Source: a virus
Taxonomy: Duplodnaviria; Heunggongvirae; Uroviricota; Caudoviricetes
Length of the DNA stretch: 64,000 bases
Reading direction: 5' to 3' (one strand)
IMG/VR virus record: IMGVR_UViG_2799112330_000002
Location: 192,001 to 256,000 of that record
Position numbers and translations under genes: made by a program. The number at the start of each line of letters is the position of its first letter. The first letter of the stretch is position 1. The notes beneath the pieces are model-generated. The model was not told where the DNA came from, did not search any database, and saw only the letters and a program-made list of their open reading frames with translations. Below are positions 7,928 to 48,078 of this stretch, one piece after another.

Positions 7928-8335
7928 TTATGTTAAACAAAGTTTAGATTCTCTATTAACATTTTCAAGACTATCTGAGGAATGCATTCCATTTTTCATT
8001 TCATCTTTACCCCAGACTTTTCTTACTTTGTCTTTTATCTTCTTCATATCATCAATTGGATCATCACAACTCTTATGACAAGAGCAACATAGGCATTCAT
8101 CACTTGACATATATTGGCATAGATCATCATAGAAATCTTTATCCTTATGCATTATATAAAGTTCTTTAGCTGTTTCAATAGGTAATTTCTTTTGTTCTTT
8201 TTGAACAACATCCCATCCATTGTTTTTCAGTAAGGTCAAAAAATCTTCAGTATGATCTAAGAATTCTGGCTTTAAGATAACAAAACCATTCAATTCATTT
8301 TGGGATTCTTTAATATGCTCAGTAAATTTCTTCAT
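7928..8335 (-). CDS. ndk: Nucleoside diphosphate kinase-like protein with CTS-like leader
   Basis: VILKPE, AKELY..HKDKDFY..L..YMSS and catalytic NGMHSSDS; N-terminus MKKFTEHIKES. Confidence 0.8.
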   Translation of the reverse strand: MKKFTEHIKESQNELNGFVILKPEFLDHTEDFLTLLKNNGWDVVQKEQKKLPIETAKELYIMHKDKDFYDDLCQYMSSDECLCCSCHKSCDDPIDDMKKIKDKVRKVWGKDEMKNGMHSSDSLENVNRESKLCLT

Positions 8336-8357
8336 ATATATTATTTAATATTATTTA

Positions 8358-8978
8358 TTACTTTGTTTGTGAGTGCCAGCGTTTAGGCCATTTTGTCTTA
8401 TCTTTTTCAACTGGGCAATTCTTTACCATGAGACATTGATCTGCGGATGGATCAATATTCCATTTATAAAGACTATGGTTGAATGGAGTATCTTTAAACA
8501 TCATAGAAAAGTATTTAACATTCTTTACATTCCAGTTAGAAACATCTCCATTGAATTCTGATTGTGTAAACATAAATGACATTTCTTCAACATTACTTAC
8601 ATCCCATAAAGATATATCTTGATTAAACTTTGTACCATTAAACATACCAAACATATTTTTTACATTTGAAACATCCCACATAGAGAGATCTCCGTTGAAT
8701 TCGGAATTAAAAAACATGCAACGCATAGATTTAACTTTACTTACATCCCATAAAGATATATCTCCATTAAATTTAGAATAATAAAATACTTCATCCATAT
8801 CTGTTATTTTTGAAGTATCTATATCATTAAGATCAGCATTATTGCCTCTTTCTTTAATTAATTCTTTTACTAATTTTATTAATTCATCTTTTGTTTCTGG
8901 ATGATAGTTATATTTAGACTTAAGATTGTCTTTTGATAGCCTGAATTTCTCTATTATGAACTGACTTAGTTTCTTCAT
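8358..8978 (-). CDS. DUF285/BspA-like repeat protein (array 1, about 5 repeats)
   Basis: MKKLSQFIIEKFRLSKDN leader, LNDIDTS cap, FNGDISxWDVSNVxxMxxMF repeats. Confidence 0.9.
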   Translation of the reverse strand: MKKLSQFIIEKFRLSKDNLKSKYNYHPETKDELIKLVKELIKERGNNADLNDIDTSKITDMDEVFYYSKFNGDISLWDVSKVKSMRCMFFNSEFNGDLSMWDVSNVKNMFGMFNGTKFNQDISLWDVSNVEEMSFMFTQSEFNGDVSNWNVKNVKYFSMMFKDTPFNHSLYKWNIDPSADQCLMVKNCPVEKDKTKWPKRWHSQTK

Positions 8979-8995
8979 ATACATTATTATTTTAT

Positions 8996-9598
8996 TTATT
9001 CTTTATACCATGCTGGAGGATTCTTTTCTAATGGAGAATAACAAAACATCCATTTCATATCTTTAACATTACTTACATCCCATCCCGTTATATCTCCATT
9101 AAACTTAGATTTTTCAAACATTTTAAACATATACTTAACATTACTTACATCCCATTCTGATATATCTCCAGTAAATTGTGACTCCTGAAACATGCATGAC
9201 ATATTTTCAACATTACTTACATTCCATTTAGAGATATCTCCATTAAATTTTGACCTATAAAACATACATGCCATTTTTTTAACATTGCTTACATCCCATC
9301 CTGATATATCTCCATTAAACACTGATTCTTGAAACATATATTGCATATCTTTTACATTACTTACATCCCATAAAGAGATGTCTCCATTGAATTCTGATTC
9401 TGAAAATATATCAAACATATTGGTAATTTTAGAAGTATCTATATCATTAAGATCTGCATCATTACCTCTTTCTTCAATGAGTTTCTTTACTAATTCTTTT
9501 AGTTCATCTTTTGTCTTAGGATGATAGTTATAATGATGTTCAAGATTGTCTTTTGATAAGCGAAATTTCTCTATAATGAACTGGTTTAGTTTCTTCAT
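8996..9598 (-). CDS. DUF285/BspA-like repeat protein (array 1, 5 repeats)
   Basis: Same leader, 24-aa repeats, PLEKNPPAWY C-cap. Confidence 0.9.
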   Translation of the reverse strand: MKKLNQFIIEKFRLSKDNLEHHYNYHPKTKDELKELVKKLIEERGNDADLNDIDTSKITNMFDIFSESEFNGDISLWDVSNVKDMQYMFQESVFNGDISGWDVSNVKKMACMFYRSKFNGDISKWNVSNVENMSCMFQESQFTGDISEWDVSNVKYMFKMFEKSKFNGDITGWDVSNVKDMKWMFCYSPLEKNPPAWYKE

Positions 9599-9630
9599 AT
9601 ATATTATTATATTATTACTTTATTTATTCT

Positions 9631-10155
9631 TTAATACCATGCTGGTGGATCATCTTCTAATGGAGATTCATAAAACATATTATACATATGTTCAACATTA
9701 CTTACATCCCATTTAGATATATCTTGGCTAAACTCAGAAGCTTCAAACATTTCTTCCATATTAATAACATTTGTAACATCCCATTCAGATATGTCTCCAT
9801 CAAATTTAGAACTAGCAAACATATGATCCATATTCTTAACATTGTTTACATCCCATTGAGATATATCTCCATTAAATTTAGATTCTGCAAACATATAACG
9901 CATATCTTCAACATTACTTACATTCCATTCAGAGATGTTTCCATTAAAATTAGAATTCCAAAATAAAAAAGCCATATCAGTAATTTCTGCTGTATCTATA
10001 TCATTAAGATCAGCATTATTGCCTCTTTCTTTAATTAATTTATCTACTAATTTACTTAGTTGATCTTTTGTCTTAGGAGATTTATATGTTAGTTCTCTAA
10101 TATTATCTCTTGATAGTCTGAATTTTTCTGTTATGAACTGATTTAGTTTTTTCAT
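9631..10155 (-). CDS. DUF285/BspA-like repeat protein (array 1, 4 repeats)
   Basis: Same architecture; lies 9 nt downstream of the neck gene. Confidence 0.9.
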   Translation of the reverse strand: MKKLNQFITEKFRLSRDNIRELTYKSPKTKDQLSKLVDKLIKERGNNADLNDIDTAEITDMAFLFWNSNFNGNISEWNVSNVEDMRYMFAESKFNGDISQWDVNNVKNMDHMFASSKFDGDISEWDVTNVINMEEMFEASEFSQDISKWDVSNVEHMYNMFYESPLEDDPPAWY

Positions 10156-10164
10156 ATATTATGT

Positions 10165-11079
10165 TTATATTGTATTTGTATTGAAGAAGTAATCAGCGCT
10201 ATGATTTTTCTGAACCCATTCTTCTATTTTTTGTATTTCTTCAGAAGCCATATCTGAAAATCTTGAATAGTTGATTGTTACTCCGCCGGGCATACGGAAT
10301 TCAAATGCACCCATAATAGTAGACATACTTCTAAGTCCAAATGCAACACATAGTCTAAAGAAATAATAGTTCTTATATAAATCTTGTATCTTACATCTTA
10401 TAAATGTTTGTAATACCACATCTGATGGTCCAAGATCTCCCATTATTACTAAATCATTAGAGAATTCATTATAGTTGAAAGTTACAGGAACATCAAATAC
10501 AGATTTGAATGTACTGATTTCATAAAGTCCAGCAACCATGTCTGTCAATCTGTATCCTGAACCGTCTCCATAAGTGTCTGTCAAAGTACCGCCAGCACCA
10601 GATGCTAATATAGTATTGTTTATTACCATACGTTCTAGTGAAAAGTCTGACATTGCTCCATAATAATAGTTTGGATTTACTTTATATACACCAAAAACAC
10701 TAAGTACTTGTGGAGGTAGTTTGACAGTTGTATTATTGCATTTCCTACAAAAGTCTCTGTTTCGTACAACAAAATATCTTTCTTCAATACAGAAATCACA
10801 ATTCTGCCAAAACCATTGGGCCGCTTGAATAATAAGTGGGGGAATAGATGCTGCTGGAATAGGAAGAGGCAAAGCGCATGATTGAGTCAATTCCTGAATA
10901 ATTCTCTGAATGAACTGATAATCAATCTGATCTTCCTGCTTTTGTCTAAGCTTCAAATAATCCTGCATTGATGTTGTTTGTGTAACTGGCTGATTTCCAT
11001 TTGGATTTGTTCCAGAATTGTTTTGTGTAGGATCAATTGTTATATTGTTTATTCTATCTTGAACTGTATTACAAGCCAT
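10165..11079 (-). CDS. Neck/head-completion protein (T4 gp13-like)
   Basis: C-terminal FEFRMPGGVTINYSRFSDMASEEIQKIEE resembles the gp13-family LPGGVTLNG...EI..LE signature. Confidence 0.7.
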   Translation of the reverse strand: MACNTVQDRINNITIDPTQNNSGTNPNGNQPVTQTTSMQDYLKLRQKQEDQIDYQFIQRIIQELTQSCALPLPIPAASIPPLIIQAAQWFWQNCDFCIEERYFVVRNRDFCRKCNNTTVKLPPQVLSVFGVYKVNPNYYYGAMSDFSLERMVINNTILASGAGGTLTDTYGDGSGYRLTDMVAGLYEISTFKSVFDVPVTFNYNEFSNDLVIMGDLGPSDVVLQTFIRCKIQDLYKNYYFFRLCVAFGLRSMSTIMGAFEFRMPGGVTINYSRFSDMASEEIQKIEEWVQKNHSADYFFNTNTI

Positions 11080-11096
11080 TTCTTAACTATTATTGA

Positions 11097-11114
11097 TATA
11101 TATATTAAAAATAA
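11097..11114 (-). promoter_or_regulatory. Putative late promoter TTATTTTTAAT(T/A)A (representative copy)
   Basis: Same or near-identical motif upstream of minus-strand structural blocks at ~1085, 7895, 11105, 23612, 26700, 30765, 46220 and 55405, and on + at ~35375. Confidence 0.55.
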
Positions 11115-11284
11115 AAAAGTTAGTATTAAAAATAGGTAAAAAAATTATACGTTCCCAATTGAAAACAGCACGAATCTTAAACTATTTTTATATTAATTAA
11201 ATATTTATTAACGATTATTTGGCAGATTATTGAGCAATTTTCTCACTTCTATTATTTAAAAATATGTGTATGTGTAAGAAATAA

Positions 11285-14200
11285 ATGGGTAATCCAGATT
11301 TTAATAATATAAGAAAACTAAATGAGATATATACTAATAAAGCTCAACAGTCTTTAACTGAAATTCTTAAATCATTTAGTTGTATATCTAATAATATAAA
11401 TCAAGAAATAATTCCCTTTAAGTATTCAAATATAAGGTTTGATGGATGTACTTCTGATGAACAACAACATTTTATCAATGACCAGTTACAACTTATTGAA
11501 TGCTTAGTAACTGATTCTATTTATGCTAAACAAGGATCTGTATATAACTGGAAATATATATATGATCTTTTGTATGATGAGAACTATGCAAAGACAGATA
11601 AGAAATATCGTAAAGTTGTATATTCTACATCATCAACAATTCGTCCCGTTGGACAAACATCTTTTCAAACATGGAATGGACTTCAGATAATTGACTTAGA
11701 TATCAAGAACAGTACAATAGCAAATTCATTAAAAGACATATTATTTGATGAGTTGTCTAAGTTTCATTGGTTTTTAGGACTATGTAGATCAGCTTCAAGA
11801 AATTCATTACATATATGGACAAAAATCACTCCATTGACAATAGACAATAGTAAACGTAGAGTAGAATATATATGTAATTTCAGACACAAGTATTCATATA
11901 TCTATATTATATTACTTAAATATGCTTCACAGTTTGGTTATACAAAAGAAGACATCTTTAAGTATATGGATATGGCAATGTGCAAGCCTCAACAGGGTAT
12001 CTTCATATCTTCGGATAATGCTTATCTTTCAACAAATTTCTATGATACAAGATTGGATGTAAATTTTGAAGCCGCATTCAACACAGGAATAGAATCAATC
12101 AATTGGATTTCTCATAATGATCTTAAAGACATATTTGCAAAATTGGAATGGTTTACAGTTGATGAATTCTATGAGAACAAGCATATTTCTGTGGAACAAT
12201 TAGAAAACCTTACTGATTATGACAAGACAAAGGCAAAGGGAAAGAAACACTATAAGCACTCTCAACGTTGGCAGTTAGCAAATACACTTACTTCATTATT
12301 CGGAGAGGCAAAAGCATTTGAGATATTTTGTAATATATGTTCTGGTACATCAATAAGGGAGTTAAAAGGTGATATCAAGACAGCAGCAATTCATAACAAA
12401 CCAATATCAAAATGGGCTGTAAAAGAATTGAACAAACAACATGGATTCAATATAAAGATAAAAGATGATAATACAGATGTTATAGACAAAATTGCAAAAG
12501 AAATTGAAAATAGTGATAATGACAAATTAGATCCCATAAAGATATTGAATGACAAGACAGAACATGTAACATTATATATGACAAAGGATCAATATCTAAG
12601 TGACATACAAGATCAAATTATTAGTAATTTGTCTCATATAACATTATTGGAAGCTGGTGCTGGTTATGGAAAGACGGAGATGATAAAGGGATTGAAAGCA
12701 AAGACATTATTAATATTGCCTTTCACATCAACAATAAAAGCAAAAGTTGAAGCAGATGAAAAGACGTCAGATTGGCTTTACTTCTATGGAAACAAAAGAC
12801 CAGATCTTATTGACATATTGGGAACACAAAACATTTCTATGACAATTGACAAATTTTCAAGGTTGAATGTATATGAATTGGATACAGCAAACTTTGAATA
12901 TATTGTAATTGATGAGTCACATCTTCTTTTCACAAGTTCATATAGAGATGTTATGGGACCATGTATTCAAAGGTTGGCAAATTGTAAAGCAAAAATCATT
13001 ATGATGACAGGAACACCAACAGGAGAAATATTGTTCTTCCCAAATATCAAACATATAAAAGTAAAGAAGGAAGATGTAAGAGACAAGACATGTGATTTTG
13101 TATTAGTTCCAACAGTAACAGAGCAGTTGTATGAAATGTGCAGATCAATTGCTGAGGATATAAGGGATGGCAAGAAGATATTATTTCCGACAAATAAGGG
13201 CAATATATATTATGAACAGATATTAGGTATCATCCATCATATATTAGATAAAGAGTTTCATTCCGATAGGCAAATAAAGTCATTTTATTATAAGAAGGCA
13301 AAATACGGTGAAGATGCAATGGAAGACATTAATAACAATAAGACAATTGGGGACTACGATATCATATTTTGTACAACTTATCTTTCGGTAGGAGTAGACA
13401 TTTGTGACAAATATAATTTTAGTATATATTTTAGTGATCCATTGATTCCTCAGGACATTGAACAGTATGCTAATAGACTAAGAAACAATAATCTTCATAT
13501 AAAAATGTTCTTACCTTATGAAGACAATAATGGATTTACAATTATTGGAGAGACAGTTAAGAAATTAGATCTATCATTTGATCAGAGGGATCTTATTTTT
13601 GCAAGAGACTTAGTGAAGACATGTAATGATATGCTTGAAAGAAATGAAGAAGAAGCAAAATATAATCCTCTTATATCTAGTCTATTGTCTACAAAAACAT
13701 ATTTGAAATATGATGAGAATGATTGCAGATATTATATAGATGAAACAACATATAAGTTGCATGTATTTGAAGAAAGATATTCAGAATTTGGAAAACAGTT
13801 GTCTATAATGGCAGATGGATTAAGATACTATGGATATAACACTCATATTATAAAGAAGACAGATAGAGCAACAGACAATAAAGATAAAATTGATGAGATA
13901 TTGAGAAACTGTAGAAACTTCAAATTCAATGAGGACACAATAAAGATAAAGAAATTCTTAAATCAACTTAATGATGGGAATATTGATTTCTATAAAGAAC
14001 TTCAAAAGGGTAATTATGCAGTTTTCAGAGATAAAGATGAAAAGAATGTAAAGACCAGAGAAGAAAACAATCTATATGTTGAAGACATTGAAATATTGGA
14101 AAAGCATATGCCTATTATATCTAGTCTCTATAAATATTATGATTGTGACACTATAAGAACAATTTATGAATATTGTATAGATCTAAAGTCTAATAGATTG

Positions 14201-14893: not shown

Positions 14894-14934
14894 TACTATA
14901 TAAAGACACACATACATACACATACATAATAGAT

Positions 14935-14976
14935 AAAGAACCATGAAGTCAATCTAAAATACTTTGTGGTTCTTTT
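14935..14976 (+). terminator. Probable intrinsic terminator
   Basis: aagaaccatgaagt...actttgtggttctttt imperfect stem with T tract. Confidence 0.55.
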
Positions 14977-15039
14977 AAATTTTGATCTCTGATGATCTAT
15001 ATTAATATTATATAAAACTGTTAAATTGATAATAAAAAT

Positions 15040-16185: not shown

Positions 16186-16196
16186 AAATAATATAT

Positions 16197-16844: not shown

Positions 16845-16951
16845 GAGACTTTTTAGAAGCAATATATGAATATCCATGGGTAACATTTTTTGTATTCATA
16901 TTATTAATGGCTATCTTAGAAAAAATTAAAGAAATATTTCACGGAGATTGA
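16841..16951 (+). CDS. Small membrane protein
   Basis: MRDFLEAIYEYPWVTFFVFILLMAILEKIKEIFHGD; ATGA overlap; below the ORF-track cutoff. Confidence 0.55.
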   Translation: MRDFLEAIYEYPWVTFFVFILLMAILEKIKEIFHGD

Positions 16952-17014
16952 ATATTCTCGGAGATTTACTATATTAATAATGTAATTAATATTATTCATT
17001 AAAAATTTAAAGTT

Positions 17015-17236: not shown

Positions 17237-17265
17237 TCTTCAACAAAATATTTAATTTACTGATT

Positions 17266-18657: not shown

Positions 18658-18660
18658 AAT

Positions 18661-34464: not shown

Positions 34465-35052
34465 ATGAGCAACAAAAAGATCATTGGTATCGATTTGGGT
34501 ACCACTAATTCATGCGTATCAGTTTATGAAGCTGGTGAAGCGCAAGTAATTACAAATGCTGAAGGTAAACGTACTACTCCTTCAGTTGTAGGATTTACAA
34601 AAGATGGTGAACGTAAAGTTGGAGATCCAGCAAAACGTCAAGCTATTACAAATCCTAAGAACACAGTTTATTCTATTAAGCGTTATATGGGAATGAATTA
34701 TGACAAACTTAAGAAAGAAGACAAAGATGTTCCATATAACCTTATTAACGACAATAATCTTCCTAAAGTTGATATAGAAGGGAAGAAATATACTCCTCAA
34801 GAAATTTCCTCAATGATTCTAGCCAAGATGAAGAAGACAGCAGAAGACTATCTTGGTAATGAAGTTACAGAAGCAGTTGTTACTGTCCCTGCATATTTTG
34901 ATGACCGTCAACGTCAAGCTACTATTGAAGCTGGTAAGATTGCTGGACTTGATGTAAAGCGTATTGTCAATGAGCCAACCGCCGCAGCACTTGCTTATGG
35001 TGTTGACAAATCAGACAAAGATATGAAGATTGTTGTATTTGATTTCGGTGGT
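34465..35052 (+). CDS. dnaK: DnaK (Hsp70) exon 1
   Basis: [26 protein letters not shown]; ends at VFDFGG. Confidence 0.95.
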
Positions 35053-36562
35053 AAACGTCATGAAAACTGCCTCCGCGCTGCAGCTTAATTTAAGTTGTAT
35101 GTGTAAAATTAAAAACTTGTTAATTGCGGAGAACCCCACGTTAATTCGATAAGAGAGCTCTAATTACCGCACTTGATGGTGACATACAAGGTAGCAGATA
35201 GCTTAATTACTATTGGATGGTAAAAAGATTAGAGATTGGGCAACCGAAATAAGCGCAGCGAAGTTTCTTAGTAATAAGAAAAACGTTCAACGACTAGAAA
35301 AAGTAATCCTATAAAAAATATCTAAAGGACCAAATTTCCATGAATACAAGTTAATCTAAAGTGGAACTTTTGATTTATTTTTAATTAAATAAAATATATT
35401 AAAATTTATGGAAAGTTCTAATAAAGAAGAGATCTTTGACATTTTGATTAAACACATTTTAAAAATTTTTGATGAAAACAATAATGAAATAAAGTTTTCA
35501 GAAATAAAAATTAAAGAAACAAAATTAAAATATGCTTCAAATTCTTCAATACATGTATATTTAGATAATAATATATGTTTATCTTCAAAAGAAACAAGAA
35601 AATATAGAGTATTATATAAATGTAGATGTGGAAGAGAAAATAAAATTTTGCTTTGTAAATATTTATTAAAAAGAAAAATAGTATGTCAACATTGTTTACA
35701 GGATAGAACATTTGAAGATCATTTAGATGTACAACCATATTCAATTAAAAAAGGGTTAAGATCAAAAATTAATAATAACTTAAACAAGCAAAACAATGAA
35801 TTGATATTTGAAAATATGAATGATGAATTTAAAACAAATTATTATTCTAATCATTTAACTAATGAGGAATTTTTTAGATATCTTCCTTATATGTATCAAA
35901 TTAATAATGTTATTATAACACCAAAAAACATTAAATTAATTAGATATTTGGAACATTATCCAACAAATAATCAATTTAAATTTACTGCTAAAGTTTCATT
36001 TGATAATGGTATAACATATAAATCAATTCAAAATATAAAATTACAATGTTCTATATGTAAAAAAATATTTAATGTACATATTAATAACTTAAAAAATAAA
36101 GATTTATCTAATATTAAATGTAAAATGTGCTCTTTAAGTAATCATAGATATAATATTAAATTATTTGATGAATCTGGACTTACTTATCAATCTAATCCAG
36201 AAAAATATTTTATTGAGCAGTGTTATAAATATAATATTAAAATTAATAATGGATTAAAAATTCCTTATTACTTTAATAATTCAAATCATATATATAATTC
36301 AGATTTTTATTTACCAGAATATAATTATGTTATAGAAATTAAATCTGATAATATTTGGTACAGAAAAGATATAGAATCAGGAAAAATCAAAGCAAAAGAA
36401 CAAGGCGTAGTAGAATTTGGTAAACTTTATAATATAAAATATAAAATGTTGTTTGATCAGGATATAGATAACTTTATTAAAAACATTTTAGATGAAAGAG
36501 ATAGTCTAAACAATCAAGAGATTGATTGAAATTAAGATAAAGAGCTTAATGATAATAAAATG
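35053..36562 (+). ncRNA. Group I self-splicing intron in dnaK
   Basis: The 5' exon ends in U and the intron ends in G; splicing restores DFGG|GTHDVS. Elements seen: P (aattgcggagaa, 35122), Q (cgcagcgaag, 35254), R (gttcaacgacta, 35285), S (gagagatagtct, ~36497). P3 aacttgt/acaagtt, P8 atctaaa/tttagat and P7 gacta/tagtc pairings are present. Confidence 0.92.
35408..36529 (+). CDS. Intron-encoded homing endonuclease (Zn-ribbons plus C-terminal PD-(D/E)xK)
   Basis: CRCG, CQHC, CSIC, CKMC; YNSDFYLPEYNYVIEIKS; starts in the P8 loop. Confidence 0.8.
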   Translation: MESSNKEEIFDILIKHILKIFDENNNEIKFSEIKIKETKLKYASNSSIHVYLDNNICLSSKETRKYRVLYKCRCGRENKILLCKYLLKRKIVCQHCLQDRTFEDHLDVQPYSIKKGLRSKINNNLNKQNNELIFENMNDEFKTNYYSNHLTNEEFFRYLPYMYQINNVIITPKNIKLIRYLEHYPTNNQFKFTAKVSFDNGITYKSIQNIKLQCSICKKIFNVHINNLKNKDLSNIKCKMCSLSNHRYNIKLFDESGLTYQSNPEKYFIEQCYKYNIKINNGLKIPYYFNNSNHIYNSDFYLPEYNYVIEIKSDNIWYRKDIESGKIKAKEQGVVEFGKLYNIKYKMLFDQDIDNFIKNILDERDSLNNQEID

Positions 36563-37930
36563 GGTACTCATGATGTATCTATTCTTGAATTCGGTTCAGG
36601 TGTATTTGAAGTATTAGCAACAAGTGGTGATACACATCTTGGTGGTGATGATATTGACAATGTTGTTATGAAGTATCTTACCGATGAATTCAAGAATGAC
36701 AAGGGAATTGATCTTACAAAAGATCCTATGGCAATGCAACGTGTAAAGGAAGCAGCTGAAAAAGCAAAGATTGAATTATCATCAACTACATCATCAGAAA
36801 TCAATCTTCCTTATATTACTGCTAATGAAAATGGACCACAACATTTGGTAATGACATTAACAAGAGCGAAGTTTGAACAGTTGATTGATTCTATTGTAAA
36901 GAAAACTATTGAGCCTTGCCGTCTTGCATTAGAGCAAGCTAAGCTTTCTACTAAAGACATTGATGAGATTCTGTTGGTTGGTGGATCTACACGTATTCCT
37001 GCTATTCAGGAAGCTGTAAAGAACTTCTTTGGCAAGGAAGCATCTAAGGGAATCAATCCTGATGAAGCTGTTGCTATTGGAGCATCTATTCAGGGAGCTA
37101 TTCTCAATAAAGATGAAGGTGTTGGTGATATTGTACTTCTTGATGTAACTCCTATCTCTATGGGTATTGAAGCACATACACAATTTGATCCTGATGGAAG
37201 AATGGCAAAGATCATTGAAGCACAAACAACAATTCCTTGTAAGAAGAGTCAGACATTTACAACAGCTGTAGACAACCAGTCAGCAGTTACTATTGTAGTA
37301 CTTCAGGGAGAACGTACATATGCTAAAGATTGCAAGACTATTGGAACATTCAATCTTGAAGGCATTGCTCCAGCTAAAGCAGGTATTCCACAGATTGAAG
37401 TATCATTTGATATTGATGCTAATGGTGTATTGAATGTATCTGCTAAAGACAAGGCTACAGGTAAGGAACAGCAAATCACAATTTCTAACAACAATCTTTC
37501 AGATGCAGAAATTGAACAAATGAAGGCTGATGCAGAAGCACATAAGGAAGAGGACAAGAAGAGAGAAGAACAAATGAACAAGCTTAATATGGCTCAATTC
37601 TTGATTAACTCAATTGACCAGATGTTTGAAGATGAAAATATGAAAGACAAGATTACTGAGGAAGATAAGAACAATATCACTCCTGCTAAAGACAATCTTG
37701 CTGAAGTATTGAAAGAATATCAAACAGCTGAAGACAAGGAAGATGCAATGCTTAAAGTTGAAGAAGCTCAAAAGGCTTTGGAAGAAGTATGGAATCCTTT
37801 AGTAAAGAAACTTTATATTGATCCTAATGCTGCCGCTAATAATGAAGGTGGTAATCCTTTTACAGGAGATAATCCATTTGCTGGACAAGGTATTGATCCT
37901 TCACAATTTGCAGGAGCAGCAAATAAATAA
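36563..37930 (+). CDS. dnaK: DnaK (Hsp70) exon 2
   Basis: [50 protein letters not shown]. Confidence 0.95.
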
Positions 37931-39548: not shown

Positions 39549-39561
39549 GAATCATGCATTT
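39532..39561. terminator. Perfect 30-bp palindrome / bidirectional terminator
   Basis: aaatgcatgattcttaagaatcatgcattt, centred on the dnaJ stop. Confidence 0.75.
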
Positions 39562-39569
39562 ATATTTTA

Positions 39570-40457
39570 TTATTTATACCATGCTGGTGGATTTCCTTCT
39601 AATGGAGATTCATCAAACATCCATCTCATATCTTGAACATTACTTACATCCCATTTAGATATGTCTCCATTAAATTTTGAACTATAGAACATACAACTCA
39701 TATTTTCAACATTGATAACATTCCATTTCGATATATCTTGATTGAATTTAGAATCATAAAACATATATCCCATATCTTTAACTTTACTTACATTCCATTG
39801 AGATATATCATTATTGAATTCAGATTCTTCAAACATATGACCCATATTTTTAGCATTCCTAATATCCCACTGAGATATATCTATGTTAAATTTATATCCA
39901 TAAAACATGTATTGCATATCTTCAGCTTTGCTTACATCCCAGTTAGATATATTTTGATTAAATTTAGAATATGAAAACATCCATGACATATCTTTAACAC
40001 TACTTACATCCCAATCAGAAATATCTTGATTAAATTTAGATTCAGCAAACATACTAGACATATTATTAACATTACTTACATCCCATTTAGATATGTCTTG
40101 ATTAAATTTAGATTCAGCAAACATATATTGCATATTTTCAACATTATGTATATCCCATAAAGAGATATCTCCATTGAATTTTGATCTACAAAATATATAT
40201 GACATATCCTCAACATTACTTACATCCCATTCAGAAATATCCCCATTAAATTTAGATGAAAAAAATAATTTAGACATATCAGTAATTTTTGATGTATCTA
40301 TATCATTAATATCTGCATCAATACCTCTTTCTTTAATTAATTTTTTTATTAATTTTTGTAGTTCATCTTTTGTTTTTGGATGATAATTATATTGATGGGT
40401 CAAATTGTCTTTTGATAGACGAAATTTCTCTGTTATAAACTGGTTTAGTTTCTTCAT
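39570..40457 (-). CDS. DUF285/BspA-like repeat protein (array 2, 9 repeats)
   Basis: Leader, 24-aa repeats, NPPAWY cap. Confidence 0.9.
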   Translation of the reverse strand: MKKLNQFITEKFRLSKDNLTHQYNYHPKTKDELQKLIKKLIKERGIDADINDIDTSKITDMSKLFFSSKFNGDISEWDVSNVEDMSYIFCRSKFNGDISLWDIHNVENMQYMFAESKFNQDISKWDVSNVNNMSSMFAESKFNQDISDWDVSSVKDMSWMFSYSKFNQNISNWDVSKAEDMQYMFYGYKFNIDISQWDIRNAKNMGHMFEESEFNNDISQWNVSKVKDMGYMFYDSKFNQDISKWNVINVENMSCMFYSSKFNGDISKWDVSNVQDMRWMFDESPLEGNPPAWYK

Positions 40458-40478
40458 ATATATTAGATATTATTTTAT

Positions 40479-41159
40479 TTATTCTTTATACCATGCTGGC
40501 ATATTATATTTTAATGGACATCCAAAAAACATATCATCCATATCTTTAACATTACTTACATTCCATTTTGAAATATCTCCATTAAATTTAGAATAAGCAA
40601 ACATCTGATACATTGTTTTAACATTACTAACGTCCCATTGAGAAATATCTCCATTAAATTTTGATCTTGCAAACATAGCTATCATATTTGTAACATTACT
40701 AACGTCCCATTGAGAAATATCTCCATTAAAAACCGAATCTTTAAACATAATATGCATATTTTTAACACTACTTACATCCCAATTAGATATATCTCCATTA
40801 AATTTAGATTCTCTAAACATACTGTCCATATCTGTAACATTGCTTACATCCCATTTTGATATATCTCCATTAAAATCAGAATTCAAAAACATATTTGTCA
40901 TATCTTTAACATTACTTACATCCCACAAAGATATATCTCCATTGAAATATGAATCATAAAATATAGATGTCATATCAGTGATTTCAGAAGTATCTATATC
41001 ATTTAGATCAGCCTTATTACCTCTTTCTTCAATTAATTTATCTACTAAGTCATTTAGTTCATATAAAGTCTTTGGGTAATAATGATATGTATATACGTTC
41101 TTTAAGTTATCTTTTGATAGTCTAAACTTTTCTGTTATGAACTGATTTAGTTGTTTCAT
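40479..41159 (-). CDS. DUF285/BspA-like repeat protein (array 2, 6 repeats)
   Basis: Same architecture. Confidence 0.9.
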   Translation of the reverse strand: MKQLNQFITEKFRLSKDNLKNVYTYHYYPKTLYELNDLVDKLIEERGNKADLNDIDTSEITDMTSIFYDSYFNGDISLWDVSNVKDMTNMFLNSDFNGDISKWDVSNVTDMDSMFRESKFNGDISNWDVSSVKNMHIMFKDSVFNGDISQWDVSNVTNMIAMFARSKFNGDISQWDVSNVKTMYQMFAYSKFNGDISKWNVSNVKDMDDMFFGCPLKYNMPAWYKE

Positions 41160-41188
41160 ATATAATAATTTATATTATTTAGTTTATG

Positions 41189-41644
41189 TTATTCTTTATA
41201 CCATGCTGGTGGGTTCTGTTCTAATGGGCATCCGTAAAATATATCAAGTTTATTTTCAACATTATGCGTATCCCATTCAGAGATATCTCCAGAAAATTTT
41301 GAACAAGTAAACATATAATCCATATATTTGACTTTACTTACGTCCCATCCAGATATATCACCATTAAATTCTGAATCTGCAAACATATCACTCATATTTA
41401 TTACATTACTTACATCCCATAAAGATATATCTCCATTAAAATTAGAACAATAAAAAGTTGCAGACATATCTTTTATGTTAGATGTATCTATATCATTAAG
41501 ATTTGCGTCATACCCTCTTTCCTCAATTAACTTACTAATAAGAGTATTAAAATTTTTATCATTTGGATGATAGTTATAATGAGGTTCAAGATTGTCTTTT
41601 GATATACGAAATTTCTCCGTTATGAACTGATTTAATTTCTTCAT
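41189..41644 (-). CDS. DUF285/BspA-like repeat protein (array 2, 3 repeats)
   Basis: Same architecture. Confidence 0.9.
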   Translation of the reverse strand: MKKLNQFITEKFRISKDNLEPHYNYHPNDKNFNTLISKLIEERGYDANLNDIDTSNIKDMSATFYCSNFNGDISLWDVSNVINMSDMFADSEFNGDISGWDVSKVKYMDYMFTCSKFSGDISEWDTHNVENKLDIFYGCPLEQNPPAWYKE

Positions 41645-41657
41645 ATATATTATTATT

Positions 41658-42278
41658 TTATTTATAAAATTTATTATACAATTCCGTATACCATGCTGGC
41701 GGATTTTTTTCTAATGGGGAATAATCAACCATCCATGCTATATTTTTGACATTACTTACATCCCATTTAGATATATCTCCATTGAATTTGGACTGTTCAA
41801 ACATATGACACATATCTGCGACATTACTTACATCCCATTTAGATATATCTCCATTAAACTTAGAATTATAAAACATTCCATTCATAGTTGTAACATTACT
41901 TACATTCCAACCAGAGATATCTTCATTAAATTTAGAACGCCAAAACATTCCTGCCATGCTTTTAACATTTGATACATCCCATTTTGATATATCTCCATTA
42001 AAATTTGATTCTTTAAACATCCATGTCATACGTTCAACATTGCTTACATTCCATTCAGAAATATCCCCATTGAATTTAGATTTATAAAATAATTCAGACA
42101 TATCAGTAATTGCACAAACATCTATATCATTAAGATCTGCATCATTCCCTCGTTCTTTAATTAGTTTCTTGACTAATTCTTTTAGTTCATCTTTTGTTTT
42201 TGGATAATAATTATATTGATTAATACTATCTTTTGATAAACGAAATTTCTCTATAATGAACTGGTTTAGTTTCTTCAT
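41658..42278 (-). CDS. DUF285/BspA-like repeat protein (array 2, 5 repeats)
   Basis: Same architecture; tail WYTELYNKFYK. Confidence 0.9.
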   Translation of the reverse strand: MKKLNQFIIEKFRLSKDSINQYNYYPKTKDELKELVKKLIKERGNDADLNDIDVCAITDMSELFYKSKFNGDISEWNVSNVERMTWMFKESNFNGDISKWDVSNVKSMAGMFWRSKFNEDISGWNVSNVTTMNGMFYNSKFNGDISKWDVSNVADMCHMFEQSKFNGDISKWDVSNVKNIAWMVDYSPLEKNPPAWYTELYNKFYK

Positions 42279-42287
42279 ATATTAATT

Positions 42288-42893
42288 TTATCTATTTTTA
42301 TACCATGCTGGTGGATTCTTTTCTAATGGGCAAAAACTAAACATCAATTCCATATTTTTGACATTACTTACATCCCATTGGGATATATCTCCATTAAATT
42401 TCGATTCTTTAAACATCCACGACATATCTTCAACATTACTTACATCCCATTGAGATATATCACCTCTAAATTTAGAATTAGAAAACATTCTATACATAGT
42501 TGTGACATTGCTTACTTCCCAACCAGAGATATCTCCATTAAATTTAGAACCCCAAAACATTCCTGCCATTTTTTCCACATTACTAACATCCCATAAAGAT
42601 ATATCTCCATTAAATTTTGATTCTTTAAACATCCATGTCATTTGTTCAACATTACTTACATCCCATTGAGAAATATCCCCATTAAATTCAGATTTAAAAA
42701 ACATATATGACATATCAGTAATTTCAGATGTGTCAATATCATTGAGATCAGCATCATTACCTCTTTCTTTAATTAATTTATTTACTAATTCTTTTAGTTC
42801 TTTTTGTATTTTAGGATGATAATTATAACGAGGTTCAAGATTGTCTTTTGATAATCTGAATTTCTCTACTATAAACTGATTTAATTTCTTCAT
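42288..42893 (-). CDS. DUF285/BspA-like repeat protein (array 2, 5 repeats)
   Basis: Same architecture. Confidence 0.9.
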   Translation of the reverse strand: MKKLNQFIVEKFRLSKDNLEPRYNYHPKIQKELKELVNKLIKERGNDADLNDIDTSEITDMSYMFFKSEFNGDISQWDVSNVEQMTWMFKESKFNGDISLWDVSNVEKMAGMFWGSKFNGDISGWEVSNVTTMYRMFSNSKFRGDISQWDVSNVEDMSWMFKESKFNGDISQWDVSNVKNMELMFSFCPLEKNPPAWYKNR

Positions 42894-42917
42894 ATACTAT
42901 TTCATTTAAATTTACAA

Positions 42918-43775
42918 TTAAAAATAAATTACCTTTTCTTTCCTAAACCATTTAGGAGGATTGACTTCTAATGGAGTTTTACGAAACATATCTGTTATAA
43001 AACATTTTTTACTTACTTTCCAGTTATTAAGATCCTGATTAAAATTAGAACCATAAAACATTCTATTCATACTTTTTGCTTTTCTTACATCCCATCCAGA
43101 TATGTCTTGATTAAATGCACTTTTTTCAAACATATATCCAAAATCTGTAACCTCTGATACATTCCATTTACTAATATCATAATTAAATGCAGTACCTCTA
43201 AACATGTCTTTCATATCTCTAACATTAGATACATTCCATTTAGATAGATCTTGGTTAAAATTTTTATCATAATTAAACATAGATTCCATTGTTTCAACCT
43301 TACTAACATTCCAATCAGATATATCCTGATTAAAATTAGAACCAGAAAACATCCAACACATATCTTCAACATTTGATACATCCCAATCAGAAATATCTTT
43401 GTTAAATGCGCAATGTTGGAACATTGCTGACATATTTTTGACTTTACTTACGTCCCATCCAGATATATCTCCATTAAAATCTGAATAACTAAACATATTT
43501 GTCATGTCTTCAACATTAGAAACGTCCCATTTAGAAATATCTCCATTAAAATTAAAAGACTGCCCACTATATTGTTCATAACTAAATATACCACACATAT
43601 TTGTAATTTCAGATGTGTCAATATCATTAAGATCAGCATCTTCACCCCTTTCACTAATTAAATCATGAACTAATTGTTGTAGTTCATTTATTGTCTTAGG
43701 GTGATAATTATAAGATCTGAGATTGTCTTTTGATATACGGAATTTTTCATTTACAAATTGTACAAATGATTTCAT
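42918..43775 (-). CDS. DUF285/BspA-like repeat protein (array 2, 8 repeats, divergent)
   Basis: Leader MKSFVQFVNEKFRISKDN. Confidence 0.9.
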   Translation of the reverse strand: MKSFVQFVNEKFRISKDNLRSYNYHPKTINELQQLVHDLISERGEDADLNDIDTSEITNMCGIFSYEQYSGQSFNFNGDISKWDVSNVEDMTNMFSYSDFNGDISGWDVSKVKNMSAMFQHCAFNKDISDWDVSNVEDMCWMFSGSNFNQDISDWNVSKVETMESMFNYDKNFNQDLSKWNVSNVRDMKDMFRGTAFNYDISKWNVSEVTDFGYMFEKSAFNQDISGWDVRKAKSMNRMFYGSNFNQDLNNWKVSKKCFITDMFRKTPLEVNPPKWFRKEKVIYF

Positions 43776-43801
43776 AATTTATATATATTGAGTTTATATA
43801 T

Positions 43802-44356
43802 TTACTTTGTAGATGTATATATATTTTTGTACCATTTTGGCGGATTATCTTCCAATGCTGAACCTTGAAATGCACGAAAGTCAGATATTATACTGGATGT
43901 ATCCCAATGATTAAGATCACATTTGAAATTCTCACAGTTTATAAACATATATGTAATATTTGTTACTTTTGATATGTTCCAGTTTGTTAAATCAGAATCA
44001 AATTTTTCACAATATCCAAATAAGTTTTCCATATTTTCAACATTACTTACATCCCATTCACTTACATCAGAATTAAAGTTCTTACATCCCCAAAATACTC
44101 CAAACATATCTACAACATTTGAAGTATCCCATTCTGATATATCTATATTATGAGGATCTAAGTTAAAAAATGCTCCTGACAAGGTGGTCATTCCAGATAC
44201 ATCAATATCATTAAGATTGGCGTTTTTGTCTTTTGCTAATCTTTTTTTAAGTATATCTTTTAGTTCCTTTATTGTTCGCGGATAATACTTATATTGTGTA
44301 ATATTGTCCTTTGATAGTCTAAATTTCTCTGTTATGAACTGATTTAATTTCTTCAT
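43802..44356 (-). CDS. DUF285/BspA-like repeat protein (array 2, about 4 divergent 25-aa repeats)
   Basis: Standard leader but a divergent body (CKNFNSDVSEW, CEKFDSDLTNW). Confidence 0.88.
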   Translation of the reverse strand: MKKLNQFITEKFRLSKDNITQYKYYPRTIKELKDILKKRLAKDKNANLNDIDVSGMTTLSGAFFNLDPHNIDISEWDTSNVVDMFGVFWGCKNFNSDVSEWDVSNVENMENLFGYCEKFDSDLTNWNISKVTNITYMFINCENFKCDLNHWDTSSIISDFRAFQGSALEDNPPKWYKNIYTSTK

Positions 44357-44385
44357 ATATAATAATTTATATTATTTAGTTTATG

Positions 44386-45132
44386 TTATTTTTTATACCA
44401 TGCTGGAGGGTTCTTTTCTAATGGAGTATTTTCAAACATATCTGTTGTATCACATATTGTATTTATTTTCCATGTAGATATATCTTGATTAAAAGGAGAG
44501 TCTGCAAACATTGCTACCATATTTTTTACAAAGGTAACATTCCACCCAGATATGTCCTGATTAAACTTAGATTTATAAAACATATGATCCATATATATAA
44601 CATTATGTATATTCCATTTAGATATGTCTCCATTAAATTGAGATTTTCTAAACATTCCTCCCATATTTGTTACTTCACTTACATCCCATTGAGAAATATT
44701 TTGATTAAATGATGATTCAGAAAACATCCATGTCATATCACCAACGTTGCTTACATTCCACTTAGAGATATCCCCATTAAATTTTGAACCACAGAACATA
44801 CAACGCATATTTTCAACCTTACTTACATCCCAATTAGATATGTCTCCATTAAACTCTGATTCATAAAACATGTGTTCCATAGTTTTGACATTACTTACAT
44901 CCCATTGAGAAATATCTCCATTAAAAATAATAGGCCAAAACATCTTAGACATATCGGTAATTTCTGATGTATCTATATCATTGAGATCAGCGTCTTTACC
45001 TCTTTCTTCAATGAGTTTCCTTACTAATTCTTTTAATTCATCTCTTGACTTTGGGTGATAGTTATAATGAGATTCAAGATTATCTTTTGATATACGAAAT
45101 TTTTCTGTAATAAACTGTCTTAATTTCTTCAT
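44386..45132 (-). CDS. DUF285/BspA-like repeat protein (array 2, 7 repeats)
   Basis: Same architecture. Confidence 0.9.
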   Translation of the reverse strand: MKKLRQFITEKFRISKDNLESHYNYHPKSRDELKELVRKLIEERGKDADLNDIDTSEITDMSKMFWPIIFNGDISQWDVSNVKTMEHMFYESEFNGDISNWDVSKVENMRCMFCGSKFNGDISKWNVSNVGDMTWMFSESSFNQNISQWDVSEVTNMGGMFRKSQFNGDISKWNIHNVIYMDHMFYKSKFNQDISGWNVTFVKNMVAMFADSPFNQDISTWKINTICDTTDMFENTPLEKNPPAWYKK

Positions 45133-45145
45133 ATATATTATTACT

Positions 45146-45754
45146 TTATTTATTCTTTTTATACCATGCTGGCGGATTCTTGTCTATTGGACATTTATAA
45201 AACATATCATCCATATATTTAACATTATTAACATTCCATACAGATATATCTCCATTAAATTTAGAATTTAGAAACATCCATTCCATATCAACAACATTAC
45301 TTACATCCCATTTAGATATATCACCAGTGAATTTGGAACCAGCAAACATATTTGACATATTTTTAACACTACTTACACCCCATTGAGAAATATCTCCGTT
45401 GAATTTAGAATTATAAAACATACATGTCATATCTTCAACATTACTAACATCCCAATTAGATATATCTCCATTAAATTGAGAATCTCTAAACATAGATCTC
45501 ATGCTTTTAACATTACTAACGTCCCATAAAGAAATGTCTCCATTGAATTCTGATTTATTAAACATAGCTGACATATCAGTAATTGTGGAAGTATCTATAT
45601 CATTGAGATCACCATTATTACCTCTTTCTTTAATTAATTTATCTACTAATTCTTCTAGTTCATCTTTTGTCTTAGGATGATAATTATAATGAGGTTCAAG
45701 ATTGTCTTTTGATAATCTGAATTTCTCTGTTATAAACTGATTTAATTTTTTCAT
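45146..45754 (-). CDS. DUF285/BspA-like repeat protein (array 2, 5 repeats)
   Basis: Start set at MKKLNQF (ATG 45754) by comparison with paralogues. Confidence 0.9.
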   Translation of the reverse strand: MKKLNQFITEKFRLSKDNLEPHYNYHPKTKDELEELVDKLIKERGNNGDLNDIDTSTITDMSAMFNKSEFNGDISLWDVSNVKSMRSMFRDSQFNGDISNWDVSNVEDMTCMFYNSKFNGDISQWGVSSVKNMSNMFAGSKFTGDISKWDVSNVVDMEWMFLNSKFNGDISVWNVNNVKYMDDMFYKCPIDKNPPAWYKKNK

Positions 45755-45770
45755 ATAATTTATATTTTTT

Positions 45771-46190
45771 CTATATTTTAACAATTTCTAATTTATTTTT
45801 ATCCCATTTATAACCCTTTTCATACAGTTTCTCATAAAACATCTCATATTCTTCATCTGTAGCCAATTTATACCATTCTGGATGATTAACATCTCCTACT
45901 CCCATATCTTCAGAAACAACTAATTTATTATATGGAATTACTAATACTGCATGAAATATTATTGTAGTTTCTGAACTATTGGGATAGATTTTGTCTTTTC
46001 CTTTATTCAATGATTTATATATAAAGAACTGTTTGCCTCCTTTATTCCATATTTGAATATCAGGATGAATAAATTCTACTATGTCACCATTTTGTGCATT
46101 TTTAATAGACCAATTTTCCCTATCAAAGAAATCTAAATTTGCTTTAGATAATCTAAATTTTTCAATAATGAATTGAGTTAGTCGTTTCAT
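45771..46190 (-). CDS. Non-repeat protein carrying the array leader
   Basis: MKRLTQFIIEKFRLSKANL followed by an unrelated domain (WSIKNAQNGDIV...LATDEE....L.EKGYKWD). Confidence 0.8.
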   Translation of the reverse strand: MKRLTQFIIEKFRLSKANLDFFDRENWSIKNAQNGDIVEFIHPDIQIWNKGGKQFFIYKSLNKGKDKIYPNSSETTIIFHAVLVIPYNKLVVSEDMGVGDVNHPEWYKLATDEEYEMFYEKLYEKGYKWDKNKLEIVKI

Positions 46191-46246
46191 TATAAACAAA
46201 TAAATATTATTATTAAATAAAAATAAATATATAATATTATATAACG

Positions 46247-47386
46247 ATGGCATATAATAAATATGAACAAGCAAAAATTGATAAGTTCAATGAATTAGAT
46301 GATAACGGAAAATTTCAAGATGTTACAGGATTAAGAAAACATGTTCCTGCAGATTTTGAAGGTGATAAAGCAAATTGGAATGTTCCAAAGGGTGCTTTTG
46401 TTTCTGGCGGTTATAGAAAAGCAATGTTTGATGCTGTTGGTGGTGGTGGTAGTTCAGAAGAAACACCAACTCCAGAACCAACACCAAATCCAGATGATCA
46501 AGGTGGAAATACCTCAGGAGATGATGATGACTCTGGCTCGCAAGTTGTAGAGACATATTCTGCTGCAGAAGCTATTGAATATAATGCAGCATTACCAGGA
46601 GCAAGAAAAGAAGGAGATAAAATAGATTCAAATGAAACAGTTCCTTATGAATATATTCATGATGCAGAATCTTGGGGATTATCTGCTGGTAACAGTGTAT
46701 TAAAGAAATATTATGAACAATATCCAGATGAAGATCACTGGAATATATCAGAAAACCGTGCAGGAAACTTCAATGATAAAGTATATGAAGTAGAAATTGG
46801 CAATGAAGTTGCAGATTTTGCTGCTCATTGGGAAAGTGATAATGTACAAAAAATAACTAAAGTATCTGATAACACAGAAGTTTATTATTTAGATATGTTC
46901 TATTCTTTAGATGAAGAAGAACATGCATTATTTACAGATGCAGCATTATCTGAATCAGCTGAAAAGGTTGCAAGATTTAGAGCAGTTAAATGGAATGCAG
47001 AAACTTGTCCAATATGTTGGGAAGGTGCAGTAAATGCTCCAGGAGCAAAATTACCTTGGGTAGCTATTAATTTTGATACAGATGTAGATGCATTGGTAAG
47101 ATTTGATTATGAAGGCAAAGATCCAGTTTATCCTTGGGGTGAAACATTATTTGGAACTGGAGAAGGTAAAAAGTCTTGGGGATTAGCATCTCCTGCTAAA
47201 GAATTTAATGATGATACATTAGCATTATCTGAAAATGGTGGTAATGGAGCATTTGATGGAGGTAATTTTAAAGTTACATTAGTTCATATAGTAACTGCTG
47301 AAGAAGCTATTGAATATAATGCTAATTTGGATGGAGCAGTTAAAGAAGGAGATCCTAAGCCATCAACTGCAGAAGTTCAAGGTTAA
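46247..47386 (+). CDS. Acidic probable virion protein with PT/G linker and duplicated terminal motif
   Basis: GGGGSSEETPTPEPTPNP linker; AxEAIEYNAxLxGAxKEGD occurs twice. Confidence 0.6.
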   Translation: MAYNKYEQAKIDKFNELDDNGKFQDVTGLRKHVPADFEGDKANWNVPKGAFVSGGYRKAMFDAVGGGGSSEETPTPEPTPNPDDQGGNTSGDDDDSGSQVVETYSAAEAIEYNAALPGARKEGDKIDSNETVPYEYIHDAESWGLSAGNSVLKKYYEQYPDEDHWNISENRAGNFNDKVYEVEIGNEVADFAAHWESDNVQKITKVSDNTEVYYLDMFYSLDEEEHALFTDAALSESAEKVARFRAVKWNAETCPICWEGAVNAPGAKLPWVAINFDTDVDALVRFDYEGKDPVYPWGETLFGTGEGKKSWGLASPAKEFNDDTLALSENGGNGAFDGGNFKVTLVHIVTAEEAIEYNANLDGAVKEGDPKPSTAEVQG

Positions 47387-47406
47387 AATAATATAGAAAG
47401 AATATT

Positions 47407-48078
47407 ATGAAAAAATTTCAAGAATTCAATTCTGAAAACACGTTAAACTGTGATTATAAGACTTGTATTATAGGGAAGTTGAAGAACGCACTTAAAGAAG
47501 AATTCAATGCATGGTATGGTTATATCATTGTTAAAGAATGGTTGACTGGACTAAGCAGAGTTGATATTGAAAAGATGTATGATGAAACCGCTAAGGATGA
47601 ATTAGAAGATCATGCATTTTGGTTGATGAAACGTATCAATGAGCTTGGTGGAACAATTGAAGACATATCTGCTTCTCCAGCTTCTTGGTTGACAGCTAAT
47701 CATACTTATATTTCTCCTGTTTGGTCATGGAAAACAAATAATACATGTTGTCAAACTGGATCATGCTGCGGAGATTGTGAAGATCCATGTGGAGATATTT
47801 GTGATGATCTACCTACAATTACACTTGGTGAACCTTATGAATGTTGTGGAGATGGATGTCAATGTGGATGTCAATGCAAGCCAGATATAATAGAAGTAAA
47901 GCAATCCTTATTAACTAATATAAAAAATGAAGAAGGAGCAATTGAGACTTATAAAGATTTAATTAGAACTGCTCAATCTGATTCTGATTTTGTAACTGAA
48001 CGTAAATGTAAAGAAATTCTTGCCGATGAAGAGGAACATTTACAAATGCTAAAAGATTTTTTAGCCGATATTAGTTAA
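47407..48078 (+). CDS. Ferritin/DPS-like protein with Cys-rich insertion
   Basis: EEFNAWYGY, DELEDHA, RINELGG, EEGAIETY, EEEH ferroxidase-type motifs; insert CCQTGSCCGDC...CCGDGCQCGCQC. Confidence 0.85.
   Translation: MKKFQEFNSENTLNCDYKTCIIGKLKNALKEEFNAWYGYIIVKEWLTGLSRVDIEKMYDETAKDELEDHAFWLMKRINELGGTIEDISASPASWLTANHTYISPVWSWKTNNTCCQTGSCCGDCEDPCGDICDDLPTITLGEPYECCGDGCQCGCQCKPDIIEVKQSLLTNIKNEEGAIETYKDLIRTAQSDSDFVTERKCKEILADEEEHLQMLKDFLADIS

Follow-up and report, generated by a model that had tools for sequence, protein, structure and literature searches.

Why do mutually dissimilar genes of one phage begin with the same short peptide? The question is raised by a 64,000-nucleotide stretch of DNA from an uncultured gut or rumen phage (the window; positions 192001-256000 of a 410,106-bp contig, C82, IMG/VR record IMGVR_UViG_2799112330_000002), in which a nucleoside diphosphate kinase (NDK), a ferritin-like protein and four further proteins start with variants of a ten-residue leader whose consensus is M-K-x-[LI]-x-x-[YF]-[IL]-x-E. 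With a probability of roughly 60%, we consider this leader to be a propeptide of the phage T4 capsid-targeting type, which would load its carriers into the head and be removed by a cut after Glu10.

Contig C82 (29% G+C; its bin partner is a 1.9-Mb genome of 25-27% G+C) belongs to a jumbo myovirus-type phage in which a gp21-type prohead protease, a major capsid protein, a tail sheath and a baseplate wedge were detected. At 30-36% identity, the GenBank sequences closest to its capsid protein belong to Sphingomonas phage PAU, Tenacibaculum phage pT24, the Lak phages and an uncultured phage of 462 kb. Calling non-overlapping open reading frames (ORFs) gave 519 on the whole of C82 and 1489 on the 102 remaining contigs of the bin, which served as a control of similarly AT-rich composition.

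A leader shared by unrelated proteins

The loose motif by which the leader was first described, MK-x(4-5)-hydrophobic-x(1-2)-E, begins 98 of the 519 phage ORFs and 19 of the 1489 control ORFs. When the register was fixed (MK-x-[LFYIMV]-x3-[ILV]-x-E), 82 phage starts (15.8%) matched compared to only 4 control starts (0.27%), and at internal Met residues of the phage the same motif occurred in 3 of 2377 cases. N-termini were then scored with a position matrix trained on 33 leaders, all outside the window and none of them from the arrays of DUF285 paralogues described below. Scores on C82 were bimodal, with 412 ORFs below 0, 9 between 0 and 5, and 98 at 5 or above, and the best of the 1489 control N-termini reached 10.1 bits. 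Allowing the best Met within the first 50 residues resulted in 104 tagged ORFs among the 519 (~20%), far more than a previous sequence-only reading of this DNA had listed; 51 of these show an array-type continuation past the glutamate (E-KFRLSKDN...) and 53 do not. Position 4 is I, L or F in all 33 training leaders, a position that belonged to the selecting motif, and position 7 is Y or F in 29 of the 33 although it was no part of the selection. Lys2 is likewise conserved, position 11 is often Ser, and Glu10 and [ILV]8 are the most invariant positions of all. Among ORFs chosen on positions 4, 7 and 8 only (n=101), position 10 was Glu in 83 and Asp in 1.

In the window, six genes outside the arrays had been singled out, and no further non-array leader was found there. 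They are listed below with their matrix scores; a slash marks the presumed cut.

7928..8335, minus strand: NDK with the 10-residue leader MKKFTEHIKE/S (leader codons 8306-8335); 14.2 bits
24306..25529, minus strand: conserved 407-residue protein with the leader MKKLKDQINES; 14.0 bits
26237..26662, minus strand: 141-residue protein with the canonical leader MKSLDTFITE/S; 19.4 bits
26714..26884, minus strand: 56-residue protein with the off-register leader MKSLRYYIE/C (Glu at residue 9); 7.2 bits
45771..46190, minus strand: 139-residue protein with the two-part, array-type leader MKRLTQFIIE + KFRLSKANL; 15.9 bits
47407..48078, plus strand: ferritin-like protein with the degenerate leader MKKFQEFNSE (Asn at residue 8; leader codons 47407-47436); 6.7 bits

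All six N-termini are present at these positions exactly as the sequence-only reading had quoted them. The leader Met of five of these genes is the earliest start codon that follows the upstream stop, and that of the gene ending at 46190 is an internal ATG of the longest ORF (45771-46274). The NDK and the 407- and 141-residue proteins are firm tag carriers. Gene 46190 is equally firm, carrying the two-part array leader on a foreign body: the body had no Pfam hit at an expectation value (E) of 0.01, DUF285/PARCEL (PF03382) included, BLASTP did not connect it to any of the 46 DUF285 paralogues of the phage, and the leader DNA differs from that of the array genes at many synonymous sites. The gene had been counted as lying besides the arrays; this applies to its body and not to its 19-residue leader. 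Scores of 6.7-7.2 bits, as for the ferritin-like and 56-residue proteins, are reached by 0.1-0.2% of controls and are weak alone. The 56-residue protein is a plausible carrier, and for the ferritin-like protein a leader that is weak by sequence is made firm by homology, as its relatives suggest.

Among 120 listed clusters of ferritin-like homologues, several of them on contigs of 367-465 kb, 74 have the strict leader (e.g. MKQLLTYINEAE) and 107 have it in any register, with a distance of 19-29 residues from the leader to the start of the core (KNAL...). Since 107 of the 120 clusters are tagged, MKKFQEFNSE in the window can be understood as the decayed descendant of a canonical leader. These homologues came from a large protein database, and a pattern search of IMG/VR for ferritin-like relatives gave none. 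For the 407-residue protein, an [ILV]-x-E-[AS]-[WY] junction lies within residues 1-45 in 78 of 82 homologue clusters, and in distant homologues the leader passes straight into this junction (MKTLQEYILINE/AWG). M1, I8 and E10 of the 141-residue protein are invariant in 7 homologues of 33-58% identity. NDK orthologues on IMG/VR contigs begin MKTLTQYIQES or with shifted variants, and six short related IMG/VR loci have 15 of 39 ORFs tagged, some with another second segment (EKLKVNSKSK). For the 56-residue protein, the searches returned near-identical copies only.

The bodies behind the leader are diverse. All-versus-all BLASTP was run after trimming the first 14 residues, or 36 for array-type leaders, and every one of the 53 non-array tagged bodies was a singleton. 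The array-type bodies include 46 that form one DUF285 family, and 5 leaders sit on bodies unlinked to that family, that of 45771-46190 among them. Recognized tagged domains are NDK, ferritin-like/rubrerythrin, NUDIX and HAD hydrolase, each of which begins past the leader. The NDK domain (Pfam PF00334, E 4.3e-15) spans residues 18-133 and profile positions 4-129 of 135, with the catalytic His motif NxxHxSD present as NGMHSSDS, and the ferritin-like core begins at about residue 25 (Ferritin, PF00210, E 8e-15, 55.5 bits against a cut-off of 24.5; Rubrerythrin, PF02915, 28.8 against 22.8). The proposal that the tag is modular is thus borne out by mutually dissimilar proteins with distinct Pfam folds starting after the leader. 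The three cargos lacking an assigned function gave nothing in a sequence search of the PDB. Neither Pfam nor PHROGs matched any of the three; Foldseek with the model of the 141-residue protein found no match, and the model of the 407-residue protein, compared with structures by Foldseek and VIA-align, returned generic helical hairpins only (best Z 4.4). The idea that the 407-residue protein is a gp24-like paralogue of the capsid protein was rejected, as the two show no similarity.

Selection appears at the level of the peptide. Glu codons at conserved leader positions are GAA or GAG in a ratio of 35:8, in line with 80:20 genome-wide, Ile codons ATA and ATT are about equally used, and in the array leaders codon positions 1 and 2 are at least 90% conserved while position 3 is conserved to 40-60%. 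That synonymous codons vary so freely speaks for selection on the peptide and against an RNA signal or a freshly copied DNA cassette. AlphaFold models of the 407-residue protein (pLDDT, the model's per-residue confidence, 81) and the 141-residue protein (69) have disordered N-termini, with pLDDT below 50 over residues 1-31 and 1-13, respectively, and in both only a short helix at about residues 4-11 of the leader. The leader is thus modeled as a flexible appendage outside the fold.

Two claims on the distribution of the tag needed revision. The plus-strand genes had been described as untagged, which is correct in the window (36 of 37, the ferritin-like gene excepted) and incorrect genome-wide, where 37 non-array tagged genes lie on the plus strand. 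Metabolic genes had also been described as lacking the leader, and this is only partly so: the NDK, NUDIX, HAD and ferritin-like enzymes carry it. Recognized genes for tail, sheath and baseplate proteins, helicases, IMP dehydrogenase-type enzymes and chaperones have no tag.

Several further features of these proteins were recorded. An NDK orthologue (L005:2815-3393, IMG/VR 3300021400_002518) has an extra N-terminal domain of ~55 residues joined by ...GLKDHIKES, and this internal ...LKDHIKES junction looks like a putative internal cut site. Residues ~113-157 of the ferritin-like protein form a Cys-rich insert that interrupts the domain (CC..C..CGDCEDPCGDIC...CCGDGCQCGCQC), and most of its 165-residue homologues appear to be without it. 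The 56-residue protein has a Gly/Pro-rich middle and a Lys-rich tail, and a pairwise comparison matches its residues 12-42 to residues 69-112 of the major capsid protein (E 4e-5; capsid gene L011:4944-6740), with the short motifs TP-x-NT-x-G-[MI]-G and GSGDIPV in common; judged from this similarity, the protein may mimic the N-terminal arm of the capsid protein or derive from it.

The T4 capsid-targeting sequence and the prohead protease

The capsid-targeting sequence (CTS) of T4, and the fact that it recurs on internal proteins of T-even phages, are textbook knowledge, and the CTS of the internal proteins IPII and IPIII was reportedly described by Mullaney and Black in 1996. In the T4 genome record both proteins start MKTYQEFIAE and score 10.3 and 8.4 bits on the phage matrix, and IPI and gp24 score ~3 bits; T4's own CTS outscores 99.9% of the control N-termini on the phage profile. 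The first ten residues of IPIII are enough for incorporation into the T4 head, with residues 4 and 7 serving mainly in targeting and residues 8 and 10 in processing, which Asp10 blocks (PMC9026906). IPI, Alt and gp24 have related short propeptides that are removed by gp21 (PMC9026906, PMC3012670, PMC5694885), a protease active only within the prohead (PMC9026906). The conserved positions of the leader examined here (4, 7, 8 and 10, plus Lys2) include all four that were mapped in T4.

The sequence-only reading had suggested looking elsewhere in the genome for a gp21-like protease, and one was located on the contig with its catalytic His and Ser kept:

82910-84607 of C82: gp21-type prohead protease, a 565-residue ORF, with Peptidase_S77 (PF03420) at 82997-83326

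The domain scores 46.8 bits against a cut-off of 27, PHROG_207 (head maturation protease) matches at E 1.5e-41, and the sole PDB sequence hit is T4 gp21, whose His85 and Ser140 have equivalents here (GELEHP and SSRAAGS align to GELNHP and SSRGLGS of T4). In its C-terminal part the ORF has an acidic low-complexity stretch rich in Lys, Glu and Asp, followed by 6.8 copies of a 36-nt, 12-residue unit (EWITEEFAPEVQ-like; C82 83937-84180, L011:4137-4380), each of which holds an aromatic-[IV]-x-E core (W-[IV]-x-E) like residues 7-10 of the leader. This tail looks like a scaffold fused to the protease, which would cut it into small peptides as happens to gp22 in T4. Between a gene for a 751-residue protein and the protease gene lie 24 ORFs, of which about 20 are tagged, the capsid protein gene lies downstream of the protease, and this order of head genes mirrors 20-67-68-21-22-23 of T4.

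If the leader works as in T4, then late in infection it would dock its carrier onto the scaffolding core of the prohead via residues 4 and 7, the gp21-family protease would cut after Glu10 upon recognizing residues 8 and 10, and the mature protein would be freed inside the head, beside the DNA. We infer these steps, that is docking, cleavage at Glu10 and residence in the head, from the sequences; indirect support for the cut is provided by the Glu specificity, by tandem sites such as INE/S (residues 8-11) and VNE/AW (residues 22-26) of the 407-residue protein, and by the intact protease. On this evidence the phage probably packs an unusually large protein cargo. Delivery of the tagged proteins into the host is a further step, one that we regard as possible at somewhat less than even odds. 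The T4 proteins gp24, gp67 and gp68 belong to the head and are cleaved, yet they are not ejected. To call the tagged set an ejected proteome, as had been done, therefore oversteps even the T4 precedent, since some cleaved T4 head proteins remain in the capsid. Slightly more tentative again is a generalization of the proposal, in which a clade of gut and rumen Bacteroidota phages of 360-465 kb would use one tag to load ~100 proteins and deliver them with the DNA, and in which the cargo would include the nucleotide-pool enzymes NDK, NUDIX and HAD phosphatase, a ferritin-like protein and dozens of variable repeat binders; in that case, sequence alone might reveal directly which proteins uncultivated huge phages inject.

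A number of observations weigh against a capsid-targeting function. To our knowledge, no capsid cargo comes close to ~104 species, 46 leucine-rich-repeat paralogues and enzymes of housekeeping type among them. Only two of the six listed leaders, those of genes 26662 and 46190, have suitable residues at all four CTS positions; NDK (His7) and the 407-residue protein (Gln7) deviate at the targeting position 7, and the ferritin-like and 56-residue leaders are off-register. The mature tagged proteins are acidic (median isoelectric points of 5.6 and 5.0), whereas the internal proteins of T4 are basic. PAU and pT24, the closest cultured phages as judged by capsid protein, have at most one leader-like start in their head-gene regions and so offer no proteomic anchor. 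Finally, at least one match to the strict motif, in the C-terminal piece of NrdD encoded by a split gene, lacks an aromatic residue at position 7 and is probably a chance hit of the kind expected at this rate.

DUF285 arrays and neighboring genes

About half of the tagged genes of C82 encode DUF285 repeat proteins, which in the window are arranged in three arrays.

8358..10155, minus strand: three DUF285 paralogues carrying the two-part leader; in the direction of transcription they immediately precede NDK
39570..45784, minus strand: nine DUF285 paralogues with the leader MKKLNQFITE + KFRLSKDNL (two members match Pfam DUF285 at E 1e-86 and 1e-68; the paralogues cluster as one family)
58339..63801, minus strand: nine DUF285 paralogues, one of them with a doubled leader (YISE then YITE)

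In these proteins ~25 further residues past Glu10 are conserved. The C-terminus, CPLE-x-NPPAWYK, is also conserved, such that both ends are fixed and the repeat core is variable. Three array genes (window 58947-59741, minus strand; C82 139330-139908 and 292831-293712) have a doubled leader, MKKLNQYISE-AER...-YITE-KFRLSKDNL, in which two aromatic-I-x-E cores stand in tandem ahead of the conserved second segment.

The 8-mer ATAAAGAA occurs within 80 nt upstream of 10 of the 53 non-array tagged genes compared to 8 of the 415 untagged genes (Fisher p 3e-6), and it overlaps the conserved ...WYKE-stop ends of array genes. This candidate may be a shared late-promoter-like element. No Shine-Dalgarno-like sequence was evident upstream of tagged genes, and a late-promoter test with TATAAATA in the same regions showed no clear enrichment. 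At C82 72821-73924 (L010:12821-13924), a cytidylyltransferase-like ORF continues in frame, uninterrupted by a stop, into an internal leader that begins at residue 244 (MMTLKEYIFEA) and precedes a body of 124 residues; the arrangement reflects a fused protein containing an internal cut site, or else a second start.

The phage also encodes Hsp70 and DnaJ, both in the window, and Hsp20. Its Hsp70 gene is in two pieces, which abut at position 196 of the Pfam HSP70 profile, with a 373-residue ORF of no known family between them (window 34465-35088, 35408-36529 and 36560-37930, plus strand), and a search of window positions 34800-36800 against Rfam at E 0.01 found no intron family.

Competing explanations and known systems

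The alternative that survives best, though we consider it unlikely, is that the leader is a cleavage site only, i.e., a short propeptide that the prohead protease or another Glu-specific protease removes to activate or mature late proteins, with no targeting to the head. It would account for the near-invariance of residues 8 and 10, for the tandem and internal copies of the [YFW]-[ILV]-x-E core in the 407-residue protein, the doubled array leaders and the protease tail, and for the presence of NDK, NUDIX and HAD enzymes, which are odd as capsid cargo. Yet positions 2, 4 and 7, which T4 genetics ties to targeting, are strongly conserved as well, including the aromatic residue at position 7, which was no part of the selection; the restriction of T4 gp21 to the prohead implies that its substrates must be there; and the block of tagged genes lies within the head module.

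Less probable still is that the leader docks its carriers to some other partner, be it the phage Hsp70/DnaJ, a site on the virion surface or tail, or an intracellular location for which it would be the signal. A short hydrophobic core flanked by Lys is a typical pattern of an Hsp70 client. The leader is such a core and the phage has its own chaperone genes; furthermore, the DUF285 repeat proteins resemble binders or adhesins more than internal proteins and conserve a segment well beyond Glu10. This alternative nevertheless leaves unexplained why Glu10 is near-absolute and Asp almost never takes its place, why the register is that of the T4 CTS and why the tagged genes cluster by the protease and capsid genes, and the recognized tail, sheath and baseplate proteins are untagged.

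Very improbable, and largely refuted by the frequency, codon and BLASTP results, is an artefact of AT-rich MKK bias, of paralogue ancestry or of an mRNA element at the start codon (a translation signal or recombination box): MK starts are indeed common (194 of the 519 ORFs), half of the tagged genes are one paralogous family and ATAAAGAA is enriched upstream, but the equally AT-rich control has almost none of the strict leaders, the bodies are unrelated and include cellular folds, synonymous sites are free where amino acids are fixed, and the tag is kept across orthologues that share only 33-58% identity.

If, then, the leader is a capsid-targeting propeptide that works as in T4, a simple sequence rule would name the head proteins of an uncultivated huge phage, and probably the injected ones. 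Such proteins would act before any phage gene is expressed, so that the list would be a catalogue of candidate first-strike factors for host takeover or anti-defence. A capsid cargo that includes enzymes of nucleotide metabolism and a ferritin-like protein would be of a new kind, and the tag could serve engineering as a natural portable packaging signal. In the library of papers searched, we found none linking capsid targeting with huge, jumbo or metagenomic phages, and the Jug-phage paper makes no mention of the tag or of DUF285.

Other systems offer partial parallels. The cargo-loading peptides of encapsulins are short terminal tags that take unrelated enzymes, classically ferritin-like ones, into an HK97-fold shell; they are usually C-terminal and uncleaved and bind the shell protein. 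Here too a short terminal peptide is proposed to direct unrelated enzymes into a shell, but it lies at the N-terminus and finishes with a protease site, and the shell contains DNA as well. In phage P1, the Dar proteins DarA, Hdf and DarB are packaged in the head (PMC9024508, PMC12810830). P1 likewise loads anti-defence proteins during head assembly and delivers them with the DNA, whereas its loading is hierarchical, through specific protein partners, with no shared decapeptide. Inner-head or ejection proteins of phiKZ, 201phi2-1 and SPN3US have propeptides cut after Glu by the gp175/gp245 proteases (PMC5694885, PMC7411985, PMC10052503). These phages, too, are of jumbo size; their gp21-like protease is diverged, many proteins inside their heads are cut after Glu, and the propeptides contain several redundant sites. 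They differ in that most propeptides exceed 100 residues with no common portable decapeptide, in that ~8-19 proteins are processed compared to ~100 predicted here, and in a cleavage motif other than the aromatic-[IL]-x-E of this phage.

The closest counterpart is the T4 CTS itself, which the leader resembles in being a decapeptide at the very start of the protein, in its register (hydrophobic at 4, 7 and 8, Glu at 10) and in its use on unrelated carriers, along with a gp21-family protease within a head module ordered as in T4. Whereas T4 tags a handful of genes, ~104 (20% of ORFs) are tagged here; next to 46 DUF285 repeat proteins, the proposed cargo includes enzymes (NDK, NUDIX, HAD and ferritin-like), and the mature proteins are acidic; half of the leaders add a conserved segment (KFRLSKDNL...) past the presumed cut; and a scaffold-like region is fused to the protease. 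The present case thus stands apart from the T4 CTS by its scale, by enzymes among the proposed cargo, by leaders in two parts and by its hosts, a clade of huge phages from gut and rumen.

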